Shown here: piece by piece, positions 1,191 through 46,774 of the stretch
Layout of the letters: every line of letters begins with the position of its first letter
How positions within the stretch are numbered: the stretch's first letter is position 1
DNA from: a virus
Lineage: Duplodnaviria; Caudoviricetes
IMG/VR virus record: IMGVR_UViG_3300044729_002905
Span: 1-52,913 of that record
Strand: one strand, 5' to 3'
DNA: 52,913 nt
The notes under the pieces: model-generated
Database searches by the model: none
What the model saw: the letters and a program-made list of their open reading frames with translations, nothing else
What the model was told of the DNA's origin: nothing
Made by a program: the position numbers and the translations under genes

Positions 1191-3017
1191 TCAGGGCAAG
1201 ATAATTAACGGACCTTGAATTATAAATCCACTGGTACTGCCAGAAACAACTCCTGAACATACAATTGCCGCCGTAGCGCCAGAAGGAGTCGTGATATGAA
1301 GCGTATTTCCAGTGATATTTGTAAATAACCCTGTGTTACCAGTAACTGTCGTACCAGATACAGTAACAAAGTTTGCGGTAGTTCCAGTTACGGTAGTACC
1401 TGTAACAGTAGTAAATCCTGCTGTACCGCCAGTGATAGAAGTGAATTGAGCAGTTGTACCTGTAAACGTTTGACCCGAAACAGTTCCTGTAACACTTAAG
1501 CCAGAACTAATGTAACCAGAACCAAGAGTAAACGTATCCCCAGAGAAAGTGAGGTTACCGCCAAATGCTTGGTTAACAGCAGTTAAGAATTCAAAGAAAC
1601 CAGACGTTGCGTTAACAACATTACCTGTAATGGTTGCACCAGAAACTTGTGCAGTGAACACTCCGGAAACTCCGGATAGTTGCGTAAAACTTCCAACGTT
1701 TCCTGTAACAGTTGTACCAGAAACTTGCGTTGTGAAAACACCAGAAACAAAATTAGCCGTTGTCCCGGTAACAGTTGCACCTGTGACCGTGGTGAAACCT
1801 GCTCCGTTACCCGTAATATTCGTGAACTGACCCGTATTGCCAGTAATAGTTGCACCAGAGATTTGGTCTGTAAAAACACCACTGATTCCAGTGACGGTAC
1901 TAAAGCGTCCAGTATTACCAGTAACGGTAGTTCCGCTGAGATTTACAAAGTTACCAGAAGTAAAGTTTGCAGTTGTACCAGTGATAGTGGTTCCACTTAA
2001 GGTGCCAGTGATCGTGACGCCAGAAGTAAAGAACCCTGAGCCAAGAACCGAAAGATTTCCGGAGACAGTTAAGTTGTTTTGAACTGTGTGCCCACTAGTA
2101 ATAAGTGTTCCAAATGTACCTGTAGTTGCATTGACATTGATTCCGGTAACGGTTGCACCAGAGACTTGACTGGTGAAAACACCAGAAATACCAGTGACGG
2201 TAGAAGCAAAAACCGTATTCCCAGTGATGGTTGCGCCAGAGATGCGATCAGTGAATACGCCAGAGACACCCGTGATATTTGCAAATTGACCAGTGTTTCC
2301 AGTAATGGTTGCACCGGAAATGCGATCAGTAAAAACTCCGGATACACCAGTAATGTTTGAAAACTGTCCCGTGTTTCCGGTAATGGTTTGACCTGACAGA
2401 AGCGAGGTGAAAACCCCAGTCGCGCCTGTGACACTTGTGAAATTGGCCGTATTTCCTGTTACTGTCGCACCAGAGACCTGTCCAGTAAAGACACCGGAAG
2501 AAAAGTTGGCAGTCGTACCAGTGATCGTGGTACCTGTCAAAGTGCCAGTAACCGTCACTCCAGAGGAGAAGAACGAATTACCAAGTGCAGACAGGGTGCC
2601 GGAGACGGTCAGATCTCCTTGAATGTTGTGTCCACTGGCGGTCAGATTTTGGAACGTTGCGTTTGTTGCATTTACTGTCGTACCAGTAATCGTAACGCCG
2701 CTTAGAGTTCCACTTACGTTAAGAGTTGTTTGAACGTAAACACCACTAAAGTTGGCAACACCAGTAGAAGTGACAGTGTTGAGAGTGGTAAGACCAGTAA
2801 CCGTTAATGGTGCGTTGATTGTGAGCGGACCAGTCATGGTCCCGCCACTAAGCGTTAAATATTTTGTGTTAAGGTAATTACTAAATTCTGAAAGAGTAAT
2901 TTTCTTATTCTTTAACGTCGGGTCAACCTCAAACACCCGAACGAGAGTGAGCAGATCTAACTCGCTTAAATCTGCTCCTACAATTGAGGGCAGCTCAGTA
3001 ATTCTCCTGTTTGCCAC
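1191..3017 (-). CDS. Thr/Gly-rich repetitive tail fibre or spike protein
   Basis: 608 aa. N-terminus 'MANRRITELP', a 'YLTLSGGTMTGPL' fibre motif and many 'SGATITGNTGQF..ITGVSGVFT' beta-solenoid-like repeats. Confidence 0.75.
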   Translation of the reverse strand: MANRRITELPSIVGADLSELDLLTLVRVFEVDPTLKNKKITLSEFSNYLNTKYLTLSGGTMTGPLTINAPLTVTGLTTLNTVTSTGVANFSGVYVQTTLNVSGTLSGVTITGTTVNATNATFQNLTASGHNIQGDLTVSGTLSALGNSFFSSGVTVTGTLTGTTITGTTANFSSGVFTGQVSGATVTGNTANFTSVTGATGVFTSLLSGQTITGNTGQFSNITGVSGVFTDRISGATITGNTGQFANITGVSGVFTDRISGATITGNTVFASTVTGISGVFTSQVSGATVTGINVNATTGTFGTLITSGHTVQNNLTVSGNLSVLGSGFFTSGVTITGTLSGTTITGTTANFTSGNFVNLSGTTVTGNTGRFSTVTGISGVFTDQISGATITGNTGQFTNITGNGAGFTTVTGATVTGTTANFVSGVFTTQVSGTTVTGNVGSFTQLSGVSGVFTAQVSGATITGNVVNATSGFFEFLTAVNQAFGGNLTFSGDTFTLGSGYISSGLSVTGTVSGQTFTGTTAQFTSITGGTAGFTTVTGTTVTGTTANFVTVSGTTVTGNTGLFTNITGNTLHITTPSGATAAIVCSGVVSGSTSGFIIQGPLIILP

Positions 3018-3064
3018 TTATAAAAATACGAAGCCTTATAAGTGATTATAGGAGGTCTAACCTC

Positions 3065-3418
3065 TTACTTTACTCGTACTTCAATTCGTGGTAAGTTTTG
3101 TGATGCAAAGTTCCAGGCTGCTGGCACACCGTAAACCAAGCCACAGGATACTGCGAAAATAACCAGAAGTTCAGCAATTGTCAGGTTACGGCGAACGTAA
3201 ACAACTTTAGTTGGAATTTGCAGTGGTTGATTAATTTCATATGTAACTTTTGGCTTTTGTTCCTGGGCTTGCTGTTGAGCGTAGTATTGTGCTACAGCCA
3301 GCTCACGAGCTTGTTGCTTCATGCGCTCCAGGTCTTCAGGAGTAATCTGACTAGGAACTGGAATTTGTGACTGCGGCGGCTCTTGACTATTGGTAGGAGC
3401 GGAAAAAAGATCTTCCAT
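3065..3418 (-). CDS. Hypothetical protein with a C-terminal transmembrane segment
   Basis: 117 aa, Gln/Pro-rich N-terminus and hydrophobic 'LLVIFAVSCGLVYGV'. Confidence 0.6.
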   Translation of the reverse strand: MEDLFSAPTNSQEPPQSQIPVPSQITPEDLERMKQQARELAVAQYYAQQQAQEQKPKVTYEINQPLQIPTKVVYVRRNLTIAELLVIFAVSCGLVYGVPAAWNFASQNLPRIEVRVK

Positions 3419-3473
3419 AAAACAAGCAGATTATCTGTAAAAAGACTAGCATTTAATCAGATTGATTGTTGGT

Positions 3474-3959
3474 ATGACACACGGTTTACGGAAGGGTCTT
3501 GAAGACATTGCCCATGAGTTGCAAAGTATTAAACATATTCTTGCAGCGATGTGGCATGCACGGTACCAAAACGGAGAAACTGATCGGATAAGTCCTGAAG
3601 TTTACGCAGATGAGTATATTTCTACTGAGGAGTGCGCCCGTCGCCTGGGGATCTCAGATCAAACGATTCGCAATTGGATTCTCGCTGGCAAGAAAAATCC
3701 AGAAAAAGGCTGGATCTACGGCGTTCACTACATAAATATTGAAGCTACCCAGGGACGTAAACAAACGATCCGTATTCCTTGGAATCGATTGATCCAAACA
3801 TTTATTCGAGATACAAAACCAAGTTATTTAACTTTTTCTGGCAGTGGTGGCAACACTTTATACGATACTTACGCTCGAGACCGGAAAGACGATCACATCC
3901 CAGACCCTACAGTACCTAAAACCCCAGATTTTGATGAAGATTTGGATGAGGAGGGTTGA
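3474..3959 (+). CDS. Helix-turn-helix (excisionase/MerR-like) DNA-binding protein
   Basis: 'YISTEECARRLGISDQTIRNWI' HTH followed by 'GVHY'. Likely start is ATG 3474. Confidence 0.7.
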   Translation: MTHGLRKGLEDIAHELQSIKHILAAMWHARYQNGETDRISPEVYADEYISTEECARRLGISDQTIRNWILAGKKNPEKGWIYGVHYINIEATQGRKQTIRIPWNRLIQTFIRDTKPSYLTFSGSGGNTLYDTYARDRKDDHIPDPTVPKTPDFDEDLDEEG

Positions 3960-19875: not shown

Positions 19876-21027
19876 TCAGACGGTACCGTCGTCAGAGACA
19901 AAGCTGTAAGCAGTCGTGATGAAGTCTTTGTTCAGCACTTCAAAACCAGCGTACAGTTGCCAAATCAAGATGATGAAACGGCTGAAGTCATCGTTGTTAT
20001 TGATGAGCACCTGAGCGTTCGGACCACCGATACCAACACCAACGGCCTGAGGACCGAAGAAGAAGCCCTGAGCAACGTCTTGGTTGGAGTAGGAGGCGGG
20101 AGTAGCAAAGCTAGCCGAGATTTGCTTGTTGGGGAAGTTGGTCGATTCGAAGAACTTCACACCTTCAAACTGAACACCAGTCGGCATCACAGGCTCACCG
20201 GCCAGGAAATAACCCTGACCAGCTTGGGGACCCATGTAGAAGCTGGCGTTGTTAGGCATCATGGGGTTACCCATGTACATGCCTTGACCAGGATTACCGG
20301 AGTAACGAGCGATCTCACGGAAGTCGGGGTCACGACGCAGGTGCATCATGAACACGGGATCGCAAATGCAGCGATACAGACCGTCAGCGAAGGTAGGAAC
20401 GTTGCGCTTACGCAGGTCCTTAACAACATTCAGCAGGTCAGTGCGAACCGAGAATTGCTGCAGGTCAGCAGTGTACTCAGTAGCAGTGTAGGTAACTTGA
20501 CCAGAAGAGTTCTTGGTCTTACCACCAGGGAAGTAGTAACCACCTTGGGTGCTAGAAGCGGCACCATTGGCTTCTGCTTTGGACAGTTCGTCAATGAAGA
20601 CGCGGTCACGCCAACGACGATAGTCATCCAGCAGGGTGAGGCTACCGATCGACTGGTGGAACATGTTGAGATTACCGGTGTCCAGCAGAAGGCGCTGAGC
20701 GGTAATCAGGGTTTCGCGAGCAATCTTAAAGGTCGAAGGCTGGGTCGGATCGCCAGGATCAGCAGGACCGGTGTATTCGTTAAGCACCACCAGGACTTTT
20801 TCCTTGGTGATGTTACGGCTGTTAGCGGTACCGATCGTTTGGTCAGCCACGCGAGCACGGCTGTCCTTGGTCCCAGGGTTGCCCCAGAACTTATAGCGAT
20901 CAAGTTGAACGGTTTGACCGGGTTGGCGAGTAAAGTCGTGGACAACCACGGGCTCTACAGCCATCTCACAGATATAAGCAGGATGGGGACGATAAAGCTC
21001 CGCACCCAGAATCTTAGGGAAGTCGTT
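19876..21027 (-). CDS. Major capsid protein, exon 2
   Basis: The frame of the 362-aa ORF extends 21 codons upstream (NDFPKILGAELYRPHPAYICE) to the 3' splice site. Sits between scaffold and decoration genes; 'G.VKFFEST', 'FFFGPQAVG'. Spliced product is about 387 aa. Confidence 0.85.
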   Translation of the reverse strand, partial: NDFPKILGAELYRPHPAYICEMAVEPVVVHDFTRQPGQTVQLDRYKFWGNPGTKDSRARVADQTIGTANSRNITKEKVLVVLNEYTGPADPGDPTQPSTFKIARETLITAQRLLLDTGNLNMFHQSIGSLTLLDDYRRWRDRVFIDELSKAEANGAASSTQGGYYFPGGKTKNSSGQVTYTATEYTADLQQFSVRTDLLNVVKDLRKRNVPTFADGLYRCICDPVFMMHLRRDPDFREIARYSGNPGQGMYMGNPMMPNNASFYMGPQAGQGYFLAGEPVMPTGVQFEGVKFFESTNFPNKQISASFATPASYSNQDVAQGFFFGPQAVGVGIGGPNAQVLINNNDDFSRFIILIWQLYAGFEVLNKDFITTAYSFVSDDGTV

Positions 21028-21850
21028 CTCCTGGTCTCTAGTTTCTTAGAGGGGTGGACTATCTCTTCATCCCTGTGGGATGCCGGACGCTAAATCTGGT
21101 ATTACGTAACAAGAGCGTGTTACCCCCAGTAGTCTCTGCGCCTTCCAATCACGCTTGATTGGCTTGGCTCAGGATTACCCTCGTCTTTACGTTAGGGCTT
21201 CCCTGAATTCATCCGGTTTGCACTCACCAATTGCTCGATGAGGTGACAACGTTGAGCGTTCAGTTGAGGTATAGTAAGCCTGGAAACCTGTTCATAAACA
21301 ACATGGAACCAAAACTTGTACCTGGATTTGGTAATCTTTACTTAACTAAAGATGGAGAGGCTTTTGAAAAACGTCTTGATCCTGATAATCAAGAATATTT
21401 TAAAAGGGTTCCCATCAGTTCAACCAGTTCTTATGATCGTATTTCAGTTCTTGTTAATGGAAAAAGAAAACGTTTTCATCTTCATGTTTTGATGGCAGTG
21501 GCTTTTTTAGGATTAGATCTTCGTTCTCATGGAACAAATAACTTTTCCCTTCAAGTAGACCACATTGACAACAACAAAAGAAACAATAAGATTGAAAATC
21601 TTGAAGTTGTTACCAAACAAGAAAATTTAACAAGAGCCTGGAAAACGGGTTGTTACAAGAACAATGGTTTTGCCAGTAAAGGAAAGCCGAAGAATTCTTT
21701 GAGAAAGTTTTCTTCAGACGATGTGGCCAGAATTAAAACTTTAAAAGAAGCGGGACTTTCTTATAGAAAGATTGCTGAAAAGTTTAACTGTGGCCATGTA
21801 GCTATTTACCAAATCATTAAAGGTAATACCTACCAGGATCTGAACTAGCT
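21028..21850 (-). mobile_element. Group I self-splicing intron (823 nt) in the major capsid gene
   Basis: Minus-strand core: P GAAUUCAGGGAA, Q AAUCCUGAGC, R GCAGAGACUAC, S AAGAGAUAGUCC. The 5' exon ends in U and the intron ends in G. IGS CGUUGUCA (21244-21251) pairs with exon 1 UGAU and exon 2 AACG. Confidence 0.93.
21303..21848 (+). CDS. Intron-encoded HNH homing endonuclease, antisense to the intron
   Basis: NUMOD4-like N-terminus, 'LHVLMAVAFL...QVDHIDNNKRNNKIENLEVVTKQENL' and a C-terminal HTH. Likely start is ATG 21303. Confidence 0.9.
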   Translation: MEPKLVPGFGNLYLTKDGEAFEKRLDPDNQEYFKRVPISSTSSYDRISVLVNGKRKRFHLHVLMAVAFLGLDLRSHGTNNFSLQVDHIDNNKRNNKIENLEVVTKQENLTRAWKTGCYKNNGFASKGKPKNSLRKFSSDDVARIKTLKEAGLSYRKIAEKFNCGHVAIYQIIKGNTYQDLN

Positions 21851-21862
21851 ATCAAGAAACAC
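21851..21862 (-). CDS. Major capsid protein, exon 1 (MFLD)
   Basis: GGAGG RBS, then GTG TTT CTT GAT. The unspliced frame reaches TAG two codons later. Confidence 0.85.
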
Positions 21863-21953
21863 GTTTATTTATCCTCCAAAGGTAGGACTTTTTATCAGGT
21901 GAAAGATTCGGTCTTTGACCTCATCTAAAAAAAGTATAGCAGTTGATAATTTA

Positions 21954-22499
21954 TCAACCAAGATATTTAAGCGTAGGAGTGTAACTCCGGGCCATTTGCG
22001 TATTGCTAGAAGTGGCAAGTTCGGGATCAGCAATTACATTTTGCTGGAACCCAGGAACTCCCATTGCACCAGGAATTGCACCTGCGGCAATGCCGCCAAG
22101 TCCAGCGAGACCAGCAGCAGCAGGTACACCAAGACCAGCAGTAAGTTTTCCAACCATACGTTGAGCACCTGGACCCATTGCAGATTGTTCAGCAGCAGCA
22201 AGAACATCAGCAACTTGTCCAATTGCTTTATTACGAGTTTTTGATTCTGCAGGAATCTTGGCGCCAATATCACCAACTAGATTTGCCATTGGAGTAATCA
22301 CACGTTCCTGAGCAGCTTGTGCCATTGCAGGCGCATACTTACCGGCCAAACGTGCACCTAACAAACCAGCGGCTCCACCGGCAGCTCCACCAAGTCCAGC
22401 GAGAAGTGCTGAACCTGGATCTTCACCTTGAGAAAGGGCATAGCCGCCGGTAGCTAAACCAGCGGCAGCGGGGATACCATATTTAAGAGCGGCTCTCAT
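21954..22499 (-). CDS. Gly/Ala-rich hydrophobic protein (virion or membrane)
   Basis: 181 aa with glycine-zipper-like segments. Confidence 0.6.
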   Translation of the reverse strand: MRAALKYGIPAAAGLATGGYALSQGEDPGSALLAGLGGAAGGAAGLLGARLAGKYAPAMAQAAQERVITPMANLVGDIGAKIPAESKTRNKAIGQVADVLAAAEQSAMGPGAQRMVGKLTAGLGVPAAAGLAGLGGIAAGAIPGAMGVPGFQQNVIADPELATSSNTQMARSYTPTLKYLG

Positions 22500-22503
22500 G
22501 GCC

Positions 22504-23466
22504 TCACTCCATCACAAACAGTTTGTTTGCCAGGACTTGAGGCTGAGCTTGGTTAATGACGCGCCAGGCATTCTGGGGGTCACGAGCCATCATCTCGTTG
22601 AAAGAGCCCCAAAAGTTTTCAGGTTGCTGAGGAGCGGCTGCAGCAGGAGGAGCAGGGAACTGACCACCATACTGAGGATCAACAGGAGCAGTGCGATAAC
22701 CAGGAGTTTCGAGTTGCTGCTCACTTTCGTACACAGGGTACGGACCTTCAGGACCAAAGAACTTCAGCGTGTAATCACTAAGAACATCGGGGTTGGTCAG
22801 GATTTCGTTATAAGCCAGGTTCTCCTGGTGCTCATTAACGGCAAACTCAGCGTAACCCTTGATGGTATCAGCGGCGCGATTTCCCCACGCGACGGCGCTG
22901 TCCAGCATCCCTTCCAGATTCAGGGCGTAGTTGTTCAGAATTGCCGGTGTCTCGATTCCGAACGCGTCCATCACCTGACGGCTTTCCTGGCTCATTCCCA
23001 CCAGGTCGGCTACCTGCTCCAAGGAGGGACTCGAGGAGGTTTGGGAAGAGCTGGGCGAGTATGCCTGGTTGGGCGACCAGGTCTGCGGAGCCGATTGTTG
23101 CGTAGCTTGGCTGACTTGACCGAAGTTCGCCGGGGCGTACTGCGGAGTCGGTGCCGAGGGTTGACCCTGGAACGGGGATTGGACTGGTGCGCTCAGCAGG
23201 TTCACCACCTTGTTGAACGCCGATTCCCAAGGATTGCCCGCTGCTTCCGGTTGGGATTGGGGGGCGTACTGAGTAGGGGCTGATTGGTAACTGGGGGCTG
23301 CCTGAGGTACCGCTTGGGGGTAGCTGGTACCCACCTGGTACGCCTGTGGTGCCACCTGGTAATTGACCGGTTGGCTGGACGGAGCCGGTGCCACGTAGCT
23401 GCTGGGAGCGACTGCCGCCGGTACTTGGCTCGTCTGTGGGATCGACTGGACGGTAGCGTCCTGCAT
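22504..23466 (-). CDS. Putative capsid scaffolding protein
   Basis: Gln/Pro/Ala-rich, located between portal and capsid genes, AGGAGA RBS upstream. Confidence 0.65.
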   Translation of the reverse strand: MQDATVQSIPQTSQVPAAVAPSSYVAPAPSSQPVNYQVAPQAYQVGTSYPQAVPQAAPSYQSAPTQYAPQSQPEAAGNPWESAFNKVVNLLSAPVQSPFQGQPSAPTPQYAPANFGQVSQATQQSAPQTWSPNQAYSPSSSQTSSSPSLEQVADLVGMSQESRQVMDAFGIETPAILNNYALNLEGMLDSAVAWGNRAADTIKGYAEFAVNEHQENLAYNEILTNPDVLSDYTLKFFGPEGPYPVYESEQQLETPGYRTAPVDPQYGGQFPAPPAAAAPQQPENFWGSFNEMMARDPQNAWRVINQAQPQVLANKLFVME

Positions 23467-25216
23467 AACTCATCTCCTTTTGTAATGCTTCAAGAGTTCG
23501 ATACAGATATGGGGTTAAATCCAATCGTGGATCTGCAGCCATCGGTAAATCCGGTGATTGCGGATGAGGAGTCTGCATCATGCCCCCCACCAGGCGTGCG
23601 AACGAAGAATATGCATTCTGCAGTTCACCCACCATCCTGAACGGGAACCCAGATAACATCTCGGCCCGTTCCTCATCCGTTTTTGACGGAAAGAGGTATT
23701 TCAGTGCTTCAATGCTATCAACACCTAATTCTTGCAAGTTTCTAACAACAATCGAGTTGTTAAGAATATCTTGCGTTGAATCTTCGTACACTGGTCCGAG
23801 CCAGCGCCACTGAATAGTTAAATCCCCATCAGGGATCAAACCAAGAACACCAGGTGGAATTTGTTGTGTACGCACACAAGCCATCATCAATTGCTTGATG
23901 CGATCCTCAAAACCAACCAGAGCTTCTTTATACATCTGAACAATGCTTTCATCTGCATCGTCATCTGGTTCCACAGGTTTTTCTAAACCTGCGGCGGCGG
24001 CAAGTGTCTCACGGAACAAACGTTCTTCTTGGAAAATGATTAGTTCCAGACAGCGGCAAATACCGTAAGTATAAATAGAATTTGCTTTTTTCTTAGATGT
24101 AGCAGCAACACGACCAAACAGTGACTTGTACTCAGTTGCAGTCACACCAGCGGAAATTGACAACTCGTCAACGCCACCAAGTGCTGTACGAATCTCCTCT
24201 CGATATTGACGAGCAAACGCGTTTTGATCTCCTGTGATCGCATCTGGAACAATGTAACCAACTCGATCATTCGGCTCTAGGTTGGCAATAATTCTTGGAA
24301 CACGAATCTGACCATCCATTCCACGGCTGATCGGATCAGCCTTAAACATGGAACGACTAAGAGATGATGGGCTAGCAAACCCTGAGTTGGCAGCGATTGA
24401 TGGACGCTGCACCACGCCTTCTCCACCTGACTCGATCAAGTCAGTCTTGGGACGAGACGAAAGAAGAGTTGGGTTGCCAAAGAACTGAACATTCTTTCGC
24501 ATTGTACGAATCATCTCGTCATGCGTAACGATGTGATTAGCAAGTGCATCAAATTCACCAACACCTTCAGTAGAAAATCCTTTGGGGTTGTTAAAGATCT
24601 CTACACAAGGAATAAATCCAAGAGTGTTGCGATAAGTTTTTGTTTTGCCTGGTACCACAGAGACAGGCTGATCAAAAGAGAGTTCACCATCTGAATGAGT
24701 CTCTTCAATGGTTTTACGTTTAATCGATAATTTTATGTATTTCTTTTGGCCTGGGGTACCAAGGCCATCCATCCCTGTGATTGAAGTTTGTTGAATATCT
24801 TGATTAACGCCAAAACCGTTTTTAACTTTATAACTGTAGATAATGACAACTTCATCGAGTTCACCGTCTACGTTGTAGTAGGTACGATATTCGTGTTTCC
24901 TAAAAAAGTAAAGACGGTAATTATTTGTAGTAGGGCGAATATAAAATAAACCCTGACCATCACACAAAAAGTAATCCCAAATTGAATCAAATCTTGTATC
25001 AATTTGGTTGTATTTGACTACGCGATCAATAAAATCTTTACGTTGATTACCAAAGTTGTCCTGAGCAGGAAAAAATTCTACCCCTTGGCGAATACCAAAG
25101 AGTTTCATTTGTGCTAGGTGTGCTGCTACGACGCCGGTATCAACGCCAATTCCACCATCTTTTTCAAGATAGGAATCAACAATTTCCTTGAGCCTGGATT
25201 TAGCGTCTGCAGCCAT
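22868..25216 (-). CDS. Putative portal protein with a long C-terminal extension
   Basis: 782 aa, downstream of the terminase. 'NTLGFIPCVEIFNNP....EGVGEF' is a portal-like segment. Confidence 0.7.
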   Translation of the reverse strand: MAADAKSRLKEIVDSYLEKDGGIGVDTGVVAAHLAQMKLFGIRQGVEFFPAQDNFGNQRKDFIDRVVKYNQIDTRFDSIWDYFLCDGQGLFYIRPTTNNYRLYFFRKHEYRTYYNVDGELDEVVIIYSYKVKNGFGVNQDIQQTSITGMDGLGTPGQKKYIKLSIKRKTIEETHSDGELSFDQPVSVVPGKTKTYRNTLGFIPCVEIFNNPKGFSTEGVGEFDALANHIVTHDEMIRTMRKNVQFFGNPTLLSSRPKTDLIESGGEGVVQRPSIAANSGFASPSSLSRSMFKADPISRGMDGQIRVPRIIANLEPNDRVGYIVPDAITGDQNAFARQYREEIRTALGGVDELSISAGVTATEYKSLFGRVAATSKKKANSIYTYGICRCLELIIFQEERLFRETLAAAAGLEKPVEPDDDADESIVQMYKEALVGFEDRIKQLMMACVRTQQIPPGVLGLIPDGDLTIQWRWLGPVYEDSTQDILNNSIVVRNLQELGVDSIEALKYLFPSKTDEERAEMLSGFPFRMVGELQNAYSSFARLVGGMMQTPHPQSPDLPMAADPRLDLTPYLYRTLEALQKEMSYAGRYRPVDPTDEPSTGGSRSQQLRGTGSVQPTGQLPGGTTGVPGGYQLPPSGTSGSPQLPISPYSVRPPIPTGSSGQSLGIGVQQGGEPAERTSPIPVPGSTLGTDSAVRPGELRSSQPSYATIGSADLVAQPGILAQLFPNLLESLLGAGSRPGGNEPGKPSGDGRVRNRDTGNSEQLRPESGRDAGQRRRVGKSRR

Positions 25217-46481: not shown

Positions 46482-46703
46482 ATGATTAACTACACAGACG
46501 AACAACTACTTGCCATGGCCATGGCAAACATTGGCACTTACATTCATGACAACTCACCTCAGTACATCTTGATTGAAGACCCACGTAACGAAGATGATTA
46601 CGATACGTGGGATTACGGCTGTGAACCATTACCTCATGACCACACTTGGCAACACACATCAATTGATGTGAGTGTAAGCCCAAGTGATGGGGATGTGGCG
46701 TAA
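46482..46703 (+). CDS. Early acidic hypothetical protein
   Basis: 73 aa; the 3' end overlaps a family D element and the tRNA 5' end. Confidence 0.5.
   Translation: MINYTDEQLLAMAMANIGTYIHDNSPQYILIEDPRNEDDYDTWDYGCEPLPHDHTWQHTSIDVSVSPSDGDVA
46643..46686 (+). ncRNA. Family D element, copy abutting the tRNA
   Basis: CACTTGG-CAA-hairpin(CACATC/GATGTG)-TGTAAGC-CCAAGTG. Confidence 0.5.
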
Positions 46704-46774
46704 TCGGTAGCCGCTGCGCACTTAAAATGCGTTGACCATTGGTCGTGTCGGTTCAAGTCCGACCATCCCTACCA
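46689..46774 (+). tRNA. trnL: tRNA-Leu (anticodon UAA), intronless, with encoded CCA
   Basis: Acceptor GGGGATG/CATCCCT, anticodon arm GCGCA-CTTAAAA-TGCGT, long variable arm, GGTTCAAGTCC T-arm, ACCA end. Confidence 0.95.

Follow-up and report, generated by a model that had tools for sequence, protein, structure and literature searches.

Is the major head protein gene of this cyanophage interrupted, four codons after it begins, by a working intron, or does it simply begin further downstream, behind an unrelated gene? The question is raised by the minus strand of IMG/VR virus record IMGVR_UViG_3300044729_002905 (Duplodnaviria; Caudoviricetes), which was analysed over its full 52,913 nucleotides (nt) and is called the window below; coordinates are window positions unless another locus is named. 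A ribosome-binding site (RBS) and four codons starting with GTG (21862-21851) run into an in-frame stop, exactly where the original prediction, made from the letters alone, had placed them. We conclude that this phage, an S-EIV1-like freshwater cyanophage, very probably has a functional and mobile group I intron in its major head protein gene, 823 nt long and situated 12 nt after the GTG start. The original prediction had recognised the intron and overlooked the HNH endonuclease gene on its opposite strand, which fills two thirds of it.

Splice junctions and uninterrupted relatives

Directly after exon 1 the intron opens with AGC TAG, the in-frame stop lying at 21847-21845, and exon 2 starts at 21027 with AAC GAC TTC CCT AAG in a frame that stays open to the stop at 19876. 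Excising 21850-21028 joins the two exons in frame as MFLD-NDFPK..., in agreement with the prediction, and the base at position -1 of the 5′ splice site (21851) is U and the last base of the intron (21028) is G, both also as predicted. Sliding the cut by one base (A 21850 or A 21027) leaves the product unchanged; no cut but the one given here has both the U at -1 and the terminal G. Exon 2 matches PHROG 1357, 'major head protein' (E = 1.5e-19), a Pfam search of the head protein returned no match, and the 782-amino-acid product of the gene upstream matches PHROG 20475, a virion structural protein family. The interrupted gene is predicted to be the major head protein gene, set in a head-morphogenesis gene order.

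The DNA of exon 2 is 83.6% identical to that of Synechococcus phage S-EIV1, with the match starting at 21025, two bases into the exon. A comparison of the window with the upstream region of S-EIV1, by eye and by BLAST, showed that the S-EIV1 gene is continuous: the same GGAGGATAAA is followed by GTG and reads MFIDTDFPKILGAELYRPHPAYICEM... A scan of viral contigs in IMG/VR gave 80 related loci, and the gene is uninterrupted in 62 of them, which together with S-EIV1 makes 63 intron-less homologues. All 63 start in the same way, with GGAGGAT-N8 (GGAGAAT in one, L077) and then GTG (62) or ATG (1), followed by the codons TTy nTn GAy and then AAy or ACy, GAy, TTy and CC, so that their N-terminus reads MF(I/L)D(N/T)DFPK. 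The original prediction had named intron-less homologues as a decisive comparison, and every one begins with an MFxDNDFPK-like sequence, the start that removal of the 823 nt restores in the window. In the other 18 of the 80 loci the insert stands at exactly the same point (12 complete, 6 on contigs ending within the insert). The first 25 residues of the head protein are kept in all relatives, and a fifth codon ACy occurs in 13 of the 63 intron-less alleles and in no intron-bearing allele.

In the uncorrected exon 2 the first open reading frame (ORF) beginning with ATG, GTG or TTG starts at 20964. Gene callers would start the head protein there, dropping 25 conserved residues, and would list a stray HNH gene, so the earlier warning of a truncated gene call was fair; no fewer than 67 non-identical related contigs set the same annotation trap. 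A correct coding sequence is also missing for S-EIV1 in GenBank (KJ410740): the full 383-amino-acid head protein ORF (L001:2487-3638) is not annotated, and the record has instead an antisense 'hypothetical protein' (2412-3173) and a 3′ fragment (3168-3638).

A conserved group I ribozyme core

The minus strand matches Rfam RF00028 at 21303-21035 (model positions 1-253) with 89 bits against a gathering score of 50 (E = 1.7e-21), the single group I intron match in the 52.9-kb record, and because of this match we regard the observation as real and far beyond chance. A search with an 18-nt core pattern added further viral contigs and brought the capsid introns to 67 that are complete and non-identical, with another 27 contigs ending within the intron. 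Fifty-five of the complete copies measure 821-827 nt, eleven lack the homing endonuclease gene (HEG) and measure 271-281 nt, and one (L189) measures 936 nt. The last was left out of the conservation counts for its aberrant 5′ junction: the TGAT that otherwise precedes AGC is missing from its exon 1, and it has about 110 additional bases. Its endonuclease ORF is intact at 184 amino acids, and its splice site may be damaged or rearranged. All 67 complete copies end in G ahead of AACGA, and exon 1 and the RBS are intact in 66/66 intron-bearing copies.

The fold was drawn by hand from the Rfam alignment and the sequence, and was scored on 52 distinct sequences (Table 1). Standard pairs fill 97.9% of 3270 cells, and 20 of the 63 pairs show changes on both sides, compared with 6.6 ± 1.5 after shuffling (0/500 shuffles as high) and at most 4 in a control in which the partners were slid by 1-3 columns. 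P4 and P7 are invariant in the 52 sequences, and covariation therefore neither supports nor contradicts either helix. Within P2 one position switches between U.G or U-A and a C/A pair (35/52 rows). The first hairpin of the Rfam alignment (21303-21272) was rejected as P2, lying within the endonuclease cassette and being missing from HEG-less copies. Between P7 and the 3′ strand of P3 an extended, covarying hairpin was found at 21129-21096 (CUGG...GUAAC with GUUAC...CCAG); where an intron of the IA2 type has separate P7.1 and P7.2, one extended hairpin was seen and two hairpins were not resolved. In a comparison of 11 HEG-bearing copies the median difference was 3.4% (0-8.1%) for the 236-nt core and 15.3% (0-25.9%) for the cassette beside it, whose synonymous divergence (dS) is 0.31-3.7. 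This low divergence relative to both the cassette and synonymous sites indicates that the RNA core is under strong constraint.

Pairing of the splice sites with an internal guide had also been predicted, and a guide that can pair with both exons does exist immediately 5′ of P2, at 21251-21244; the prediction, which gave no coordinates, may or may not have meant this guide. In the resulting P1, U21851 at the cut stands opposite G21247 as a U.G wobble, and the intron AGC can pair with GUU of the guide. The sequence TTGAT-AGC across the splice site and the guide itself are invariant in 66/66 copies, while codons 2 and 3 of exon 1 vary. P10, between AACG of exon 2 and CGUU of the guide, has standard pairs in 50-52 of the 52 rows, depending on the pair. 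The distal helix P1a appears in minimum free energy (MFE) folds of HEG-less copies; its strands are invariant except for CUGAAU on the 3′ strand of 1/66 copies, hence without covariation. A second guide candidate, at 21579-21569 within the endonuclease gene (able to form 5 bp with exon 1 and 6 bp with exon 2), was rejected because this stretch varies among copies and is missing from HEG-less introns. Pairing of the intron AGC with GCU (21257-21255), which MFE folds prefer, is less likely than pairing with GUU of the guide, since 3/66 copies have ACU there and a second intron lineage, described below, keeps AGC-GUU. In that lineage (L113 and L196) the exon ends in CGAU and the guide reads GUCG, a compensatory change relative to UGAU and GUCA, and its P10 is weaker (exon AAUG).

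An antisense HNH endonuclease gene inside P1

The plus strand of the intron encodes a putative HNH homing endonuclease, for which a TTG at 21231, upstream of the conserved ATG, also lies in the open frame. The protein matches Pfam HNH_3 (39.2 bits against a cut-off of 24.8, E = 5.4e-10) and PHROG 59 (E = 1.5e-26), and has a C-terminal helix-turn-helix, with helix-turn-helix families scoring under their cut-offs. Among solved structures the sole match is I-HmuI (1u3e, E = 1.5e-4, residues 42-121). The closest phage relatives, at about 30% identity, come from Bacillus, Lactococcus, Twort and crAss phages and are annotated as HNH homing endonucleases. The cassette product is thus best described as a predicted I-HmuI-like enzyme: I-HmuI, of Bacillus phage SPO1, likewise has an HNH domain followed by a helix-turn-helix, but identity is low and the nicking specificity of I-HmuI is not transferable. 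The gene for I-HmuI lies in sense orientation within its intron, which is in a polymerase gene.

The frame is open in 56/56 full-size introns, the median ratio of nonsynonymous to synonymous divergence is 0.12 over 52 pairs (11 copies), and the variable sites number 57, 28 and 126 at the first, second and third codon positions. The intron-sense strand has no comparable frame, its longest stop-free run being 51 codons in the window and 41-105 in the other copies. Patterns for the HNH motif were found in 7/56 copies in a strict form and in 47/56 in a looser form, and neither count was used as evidence, for which ORF integrity and the Pfam match served instead. By these sequence measures the endonuclease is maintained as a coding gene in a mobile intron.

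A contig from a DNA sequencing run (X1) joins 21263 to 21831 through 20 other letters, and HEG-less introns carry a small hairpin at this place; the cassette was delimited on both grounds. The final six codons of the endonuclease extend beyond it into conserved intron sequence. Ahead of the ATG, 45/51 copies have a promoter-like site on the plus strand, consisting of [T/C]TGAG[C/T], a spacer of 16-18 nt, TAnnnT and then 22-24 nt before the ATG, and in 44 of the 45 a TG stands one base before TAnnnT. The conserved positions are those important in an extended -10 promoter, and the -35-like element lies on the strand opposite the bases immediately 5′ of the guide. A scan of 20900-22100 for promoter and terminator consensus sequences found nothing at this site and no terminators; it gave two promoter-like sites, both within the endonuclease ORF, against 1.7 expected from shuffles, and was uninformative. 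We treat a promoter before the endonuclease gene as a lead, and expression of the copy in the window as uncertain.

Junction contigs from RNA

The stretch is present in 20 public runs from 17 studies, 6 of the runs being RNA, and since DNA runs of many studies contain it, intron-bearing phages must be viable. Contigs were compared for three RNA runs (X15, X16 and X17) and one DNA run (X1). X15 and X16, which carry two study codes, each yielded one contig that joins 21026 directly to 21850, skipping 823 nt; allowing for the one-base slide, this corresponds to removal of 21028-21850. The depths were 11.2 and 12, and the junction evidence consists of assembled contigs. These contigs favour splicing and are supportive rather than decisive. 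With the Rfam score, the shared start of the 63 intron-less homologues and the covariation, the exact skip in two RNA runs upholds the prediction of a group I intron after codon 4.

All RNA contigs on the upstream side, spliced or not and from all three runs, end at 21879, and the DNA contig continues; between 21892 and about 22400 the RNA runs have almost no depth. These observations hint, weakly, at an RNA 5′ end some 17 nt ahead of the GTG. Just past the upstream gene, at about 21955-21925, there is an AT-rich hairpin with a T-run behind it, and together with the contig ends and the low RNA depth it suggests a separate, highly expressed capsid transcript.

Presence and absence of the intron among related phages

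In a FastTree tree of exon 2 (82 rows, 19 of them intron-bearing) the intron state changes at least 13 times, 8 of these changes being forced by well-supported branches. Shuffled labels gave a mean of 17 changes, and 5-6 of 500 shuffles were as low as the observed value. Such counts cannot separate gain from loss, and recombination within the gene may inflate them. The nearest relatives of the window include the intron-bearing L004 and the intron-less L003, L005 and L006. An intron present in some near-identical phages and not in others is as expected of a selfish mobile element, which on the distribution among these sequences it appears to be.

One HEG-less copy (L140) retains the bases that in HEG-bearing introns border the cassette on either side, which suggests loss of the HEG by deletion rather than an intron that was never invaded. 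In more distant alleles a second, diverged intron lineage occupies the same capsid site (L113:2763-3107 and L196:2637-2978); it is roughly 400 nt long, with a large P5 insertion, no endonuclease gene and a simple P1 hairpin, and its exons end in CGAU and resume with AAUGAU. A single site in an abundant lake phage lineage thus displays every stage of the homing cycle (empty, HEG-less, HEG-bearing, a likely HEG deletion and a second intron lineage) and offers a natural population for the study of intron gain and loss in a gene that needs expression at the highest level.

The same 18-nt J8/7-P7 motif was also found in viral contigs with related cores before the open frames of other genes, of the RecT family in L105 and L126 (E about 1e-27) and of the anaerobic ribonucleotide reductase NrdD in L139 (E = 2e-111); L102 and L177 have a similar downstream frame.

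Proposed mechanism and alternative explanations

Splicing would begin with P1, in which UGAU-AGC at the 5′ splice site pairs with GUUGUCA about 600 nt downstream, with the U.G wobble at the cut, and the distal part of P1 (P1a, GUUCAG with CUGAAC) would form a long loop carrying the 567-nt cassette. Guanosine would attack between U21851 and A21850, the guide CGUU would then pair with AACG of exon 2, and release of the terminal G21028 would leave the exons joined as MFLD-NDFPK... On unspliced RNA the UAG at codon 2 of the intron would release ribosomes; the first in-frame stop falls at codon 2 in 60/67 copies, at codon 4 in 1 and at codon 7 in 6. In mixed infections the endonuclease would presumably nick or cut capsid alleles that have no intron, after which repair would copy the intron in.

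Several observations weigh against a functional, mobile intron. P1 has only 4 bp with the exon, as does P10, and both are invariant in the main lineage, so that the two helices rest on conservation together with one compensation between lineages. RNA run X17 gave no junction contig, and X1, which also gave no junction contig, is the sole DNA control. Coverage by the RNA runs is incomplete over the stretch, and we conclude nothing from gaps of this sort. On its shorter side the joint spans 29 letters, fewer than the 31 required of a bridging record; an RNA 5′ end near 21879 would explain this length. Strains without the intron, or DNA carried into the RNA libraries, could be the source of the junction contigs; 62 of the 80 relatives are intron-less, and L006 has the 60 upstream bases of the window unchanged and joined straight to exon 2. 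Finally, the promoter-like site is disrupted in the window (21236-21302, plus strand) and in L148 and L174, which are identical to the window in this region, by a 2-nt deletion and base changes that leave a TATAGT only 12 nt past the -35-like element, so that the endonuclease of this copy may be poorly expressed.

A real intron that splices in vivo with the aid of a host or phage RNA chaperone or a maturase, and not as an autonomous ribozyme, seems to us distinctly unlikely. The short pairings of P1 and P10 with the exons, 4 bp each, and the distance of about 600 nt between 5′ splice site and guide in HEG-bearing copies would fit such a need, but all core helices are present, conserved and covarying. 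HNH endonucleases are not known to act as maturases. The core also resembles those of other phage introns (S-CBWM1 psbA; jumbo-phage loci at 75-76%), and the polymerase intron of Pf-WMP3, a related cyanophage, self-splices in vitro according to PMC3428280.

It is likewise improbable that the layout is a timing device and not only a parasite, with early antisense transcription holding back or destroying capsid RNA that is still unspliced, until overtaken by late transcription. Roughly 15 nt past the start codon are covered by a ribosome that initiates, and P1 would therefore be occluded; with the 5′ splice site 12 nt after the start, initiation and splicing would exclude each other on one RNA. 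The endonuclease mRNA, which in most copies would start from the promoter-like site with its -35 element antisense to the guide region, would be fully complementary to the P1 loop of the capsid pre-mRNA over about 570 nt. That splicing could gate late expression, as the original prediction inferred, is speculation.

Far less probable is a decaying insertion that no longer splices, the head protein being made from the ATG at 20964 (362 amino acids) with its first 25 residues dispensable. Such an ORF exists and intron-less strains could supply the RNA junction contigs, but the 25 N-terminal residues are conserved in all relatives, exon 1 and its RBS are intact in every intron-bearing copy counted, no variation is seen in the terminal G, the guide or the U at -1, and the core changes at a rate about 4.5-fold below that of the adjoining cassette, with compensatory changes. 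That there is no intron at all, and that a free-standing endonuclease gene (free-standing HNH genes are common in phages) on the other strand, with its own promoter-like site in most relatives, has come to lie between a chance four-codon ORF and the true capsid start, is barely credible against the 89-bit Rfam match, the ribozyme retained at the same site in HEG-less copies of 271-281 nt, and the restoration of the start of 63 uninterrupted homologues by removal of exactly 823 nt.

Comparison with known phage introns

The functional, mobile intron that we favour is of a known type and opens no new kind of mechanism. The original prediction set it against phage introns in td, nrd, pol or psbA genes, a contrast that overstates the surprise, as introns in capsid genes have been published for LittleE, Tuc2009 and crAss-like phages. 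Mycobacteriophage LittleE has an 819-bp group-I-type intron in its major capsid gene, which is present in only some members of its cluster and whose splicing was shown by reverse transcription PCR and N-terminal sequencing, as reported by Pope et al. 2013 (PMC3706429). The same text describes features shared with the window, namely a U that ends exon 1, a G that ends the intron and an endonuclease frame on the opposite strand. In other respects the two differ: the LittleE endonuclease is LAGLIDADG-like, whereas that of the window is HNH, the host is actinobacterial, the intron does not stand four codons after the start, its class is given as 'most likely group I' compared with a firm class in the window, and its splicing was shown by experiment, whereas splicing in the window is predicted from sequence and supported by contigs. 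A capsid-gene intron of lactococcal phage Tuc2009 is cited in the introduction of PMC3706429, and group I introns in the major capsid protein genes of crAss-like phages of the Delta and Zeta groups are reported by Yutin et al. 2021 (PMC7886860). These introns, like that of the window, are group I introns that interrupt the capsid genes of tailed phages and confuse gene calling; unlike it, they belong to other lineages and hosts and were found through their endonuclease domains, and the passages on them mention no antisense layout.

Among freshwater cyanophages, Pf-WMP3 has an IA2 intron in its DNA polymerase gene with a sense-strand HNH endonuclease, I-PfoP3I (Kong et al. 2012, PMC3428280). 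In that intron the ORF is in sense orientation and spans P6a-P7.2, and P2 is absent; in the window, by contrast, the ORF is antisense and lies in the P1 loop, P2 is present and the interrupted gene encodes the capsid protein. Searches of the literature found no paper on a capsid-gene intron in a cyanophage, and direct searches for antisense endonuclease genes in phage introns pointed only to nuclear ribosomal DNA cases, LittleE having surfaced separately. The annotated psbA intron of Synechococcus phage S-CBWM1, in another host gene, is 71.9% identical over 48% of the ribozyme core. In psbA introns of the S-PM2 type the endonuclease is free-standing beside the gene and not inside the intron. 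Unannotated loci in Klebsiella, Escherichia and Vibrio phages also match most of the core, at 70-76% identity.

Feature coordinates and neighbouring genes

Table 1. Features of the interrupted major head protein gene and its intron in window coordinates, listed for each strand in its own 5′ to 3′ order where applicable.
Feature	Position	Strand	Remarks
Shine-Dalgarno GGAGG of the capsid gene	21877-21873	minus	10 nt ahead of GTG
Exon 1, GTG TTT CTT GAT (MFLD)	21862-21851	minus	last base is the U of the 5′ splice site
Group I intron, 823 nt	21850-21028	minus	Rfam RF00028; terminal G at 21028
Exon 2, major head protein gene (predicted)	21027-19876	minus	383 codons and stop; spliced product 387 amino acids
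P1, 5′ strand, UGAU (exon 1) and AGC (intron)	21854-21848	minus	pairs with GUUGUCA 21250-21244
P1a, 5′ strand, GUUCAG	21845-21840	minus	pairs with CUGAAC 21263-21258; encloses the cassette loop
Internal guide CGUU-GUCA	21251-21244	minus	GUCA with exon 1 (P1), CGUU with exon 2 AACG (P10)
P2, 8-bp stem with GCAA tetraloop	21242-21223	minus	both-side changes in 6/8 pairs
Catalytic core: P3, P4-P6, P7, P7.1 hairpin, P8, P9	21216-21036	minus	Rfam alignment and covariation
P3	21216-21210 with 21089-21083	minus	hand-drawn fold
P7	21134-21130 with 21061-21057	minus	hand-drawn fold
P9	21051-21047 with 21040-21036	minus	hand-drawn fold
HNH homing endonuclease gene (putative)	21303-21848	plus	181 amino acids from the conserved ATG; antisense to the intron RNA
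Endonuclease cassette, 567 nt	21264-21830		in the P1a loop; about 20 nt instead in HEG-less copies
CTAG palindrome	21848-21845	both	minus UAG 21847-21845; plus TAG stop of the endonuclease 21846-21848

Upstream of the head protein gene two minus-strand ORFs, at 22868-25216 (782 amino acids, of the virion structural family) and 22504-23466 (320 amino acids), overlap by about 600 nt in different frames, and the N-terminus of the shorter one (MQDATVQSIPQ) is also open in S-EIV1. Elsewhere in the window a tRNA gene with a long extra arm lies on the plus strand at 46689-46771 (Rfam, 53.8 bits).

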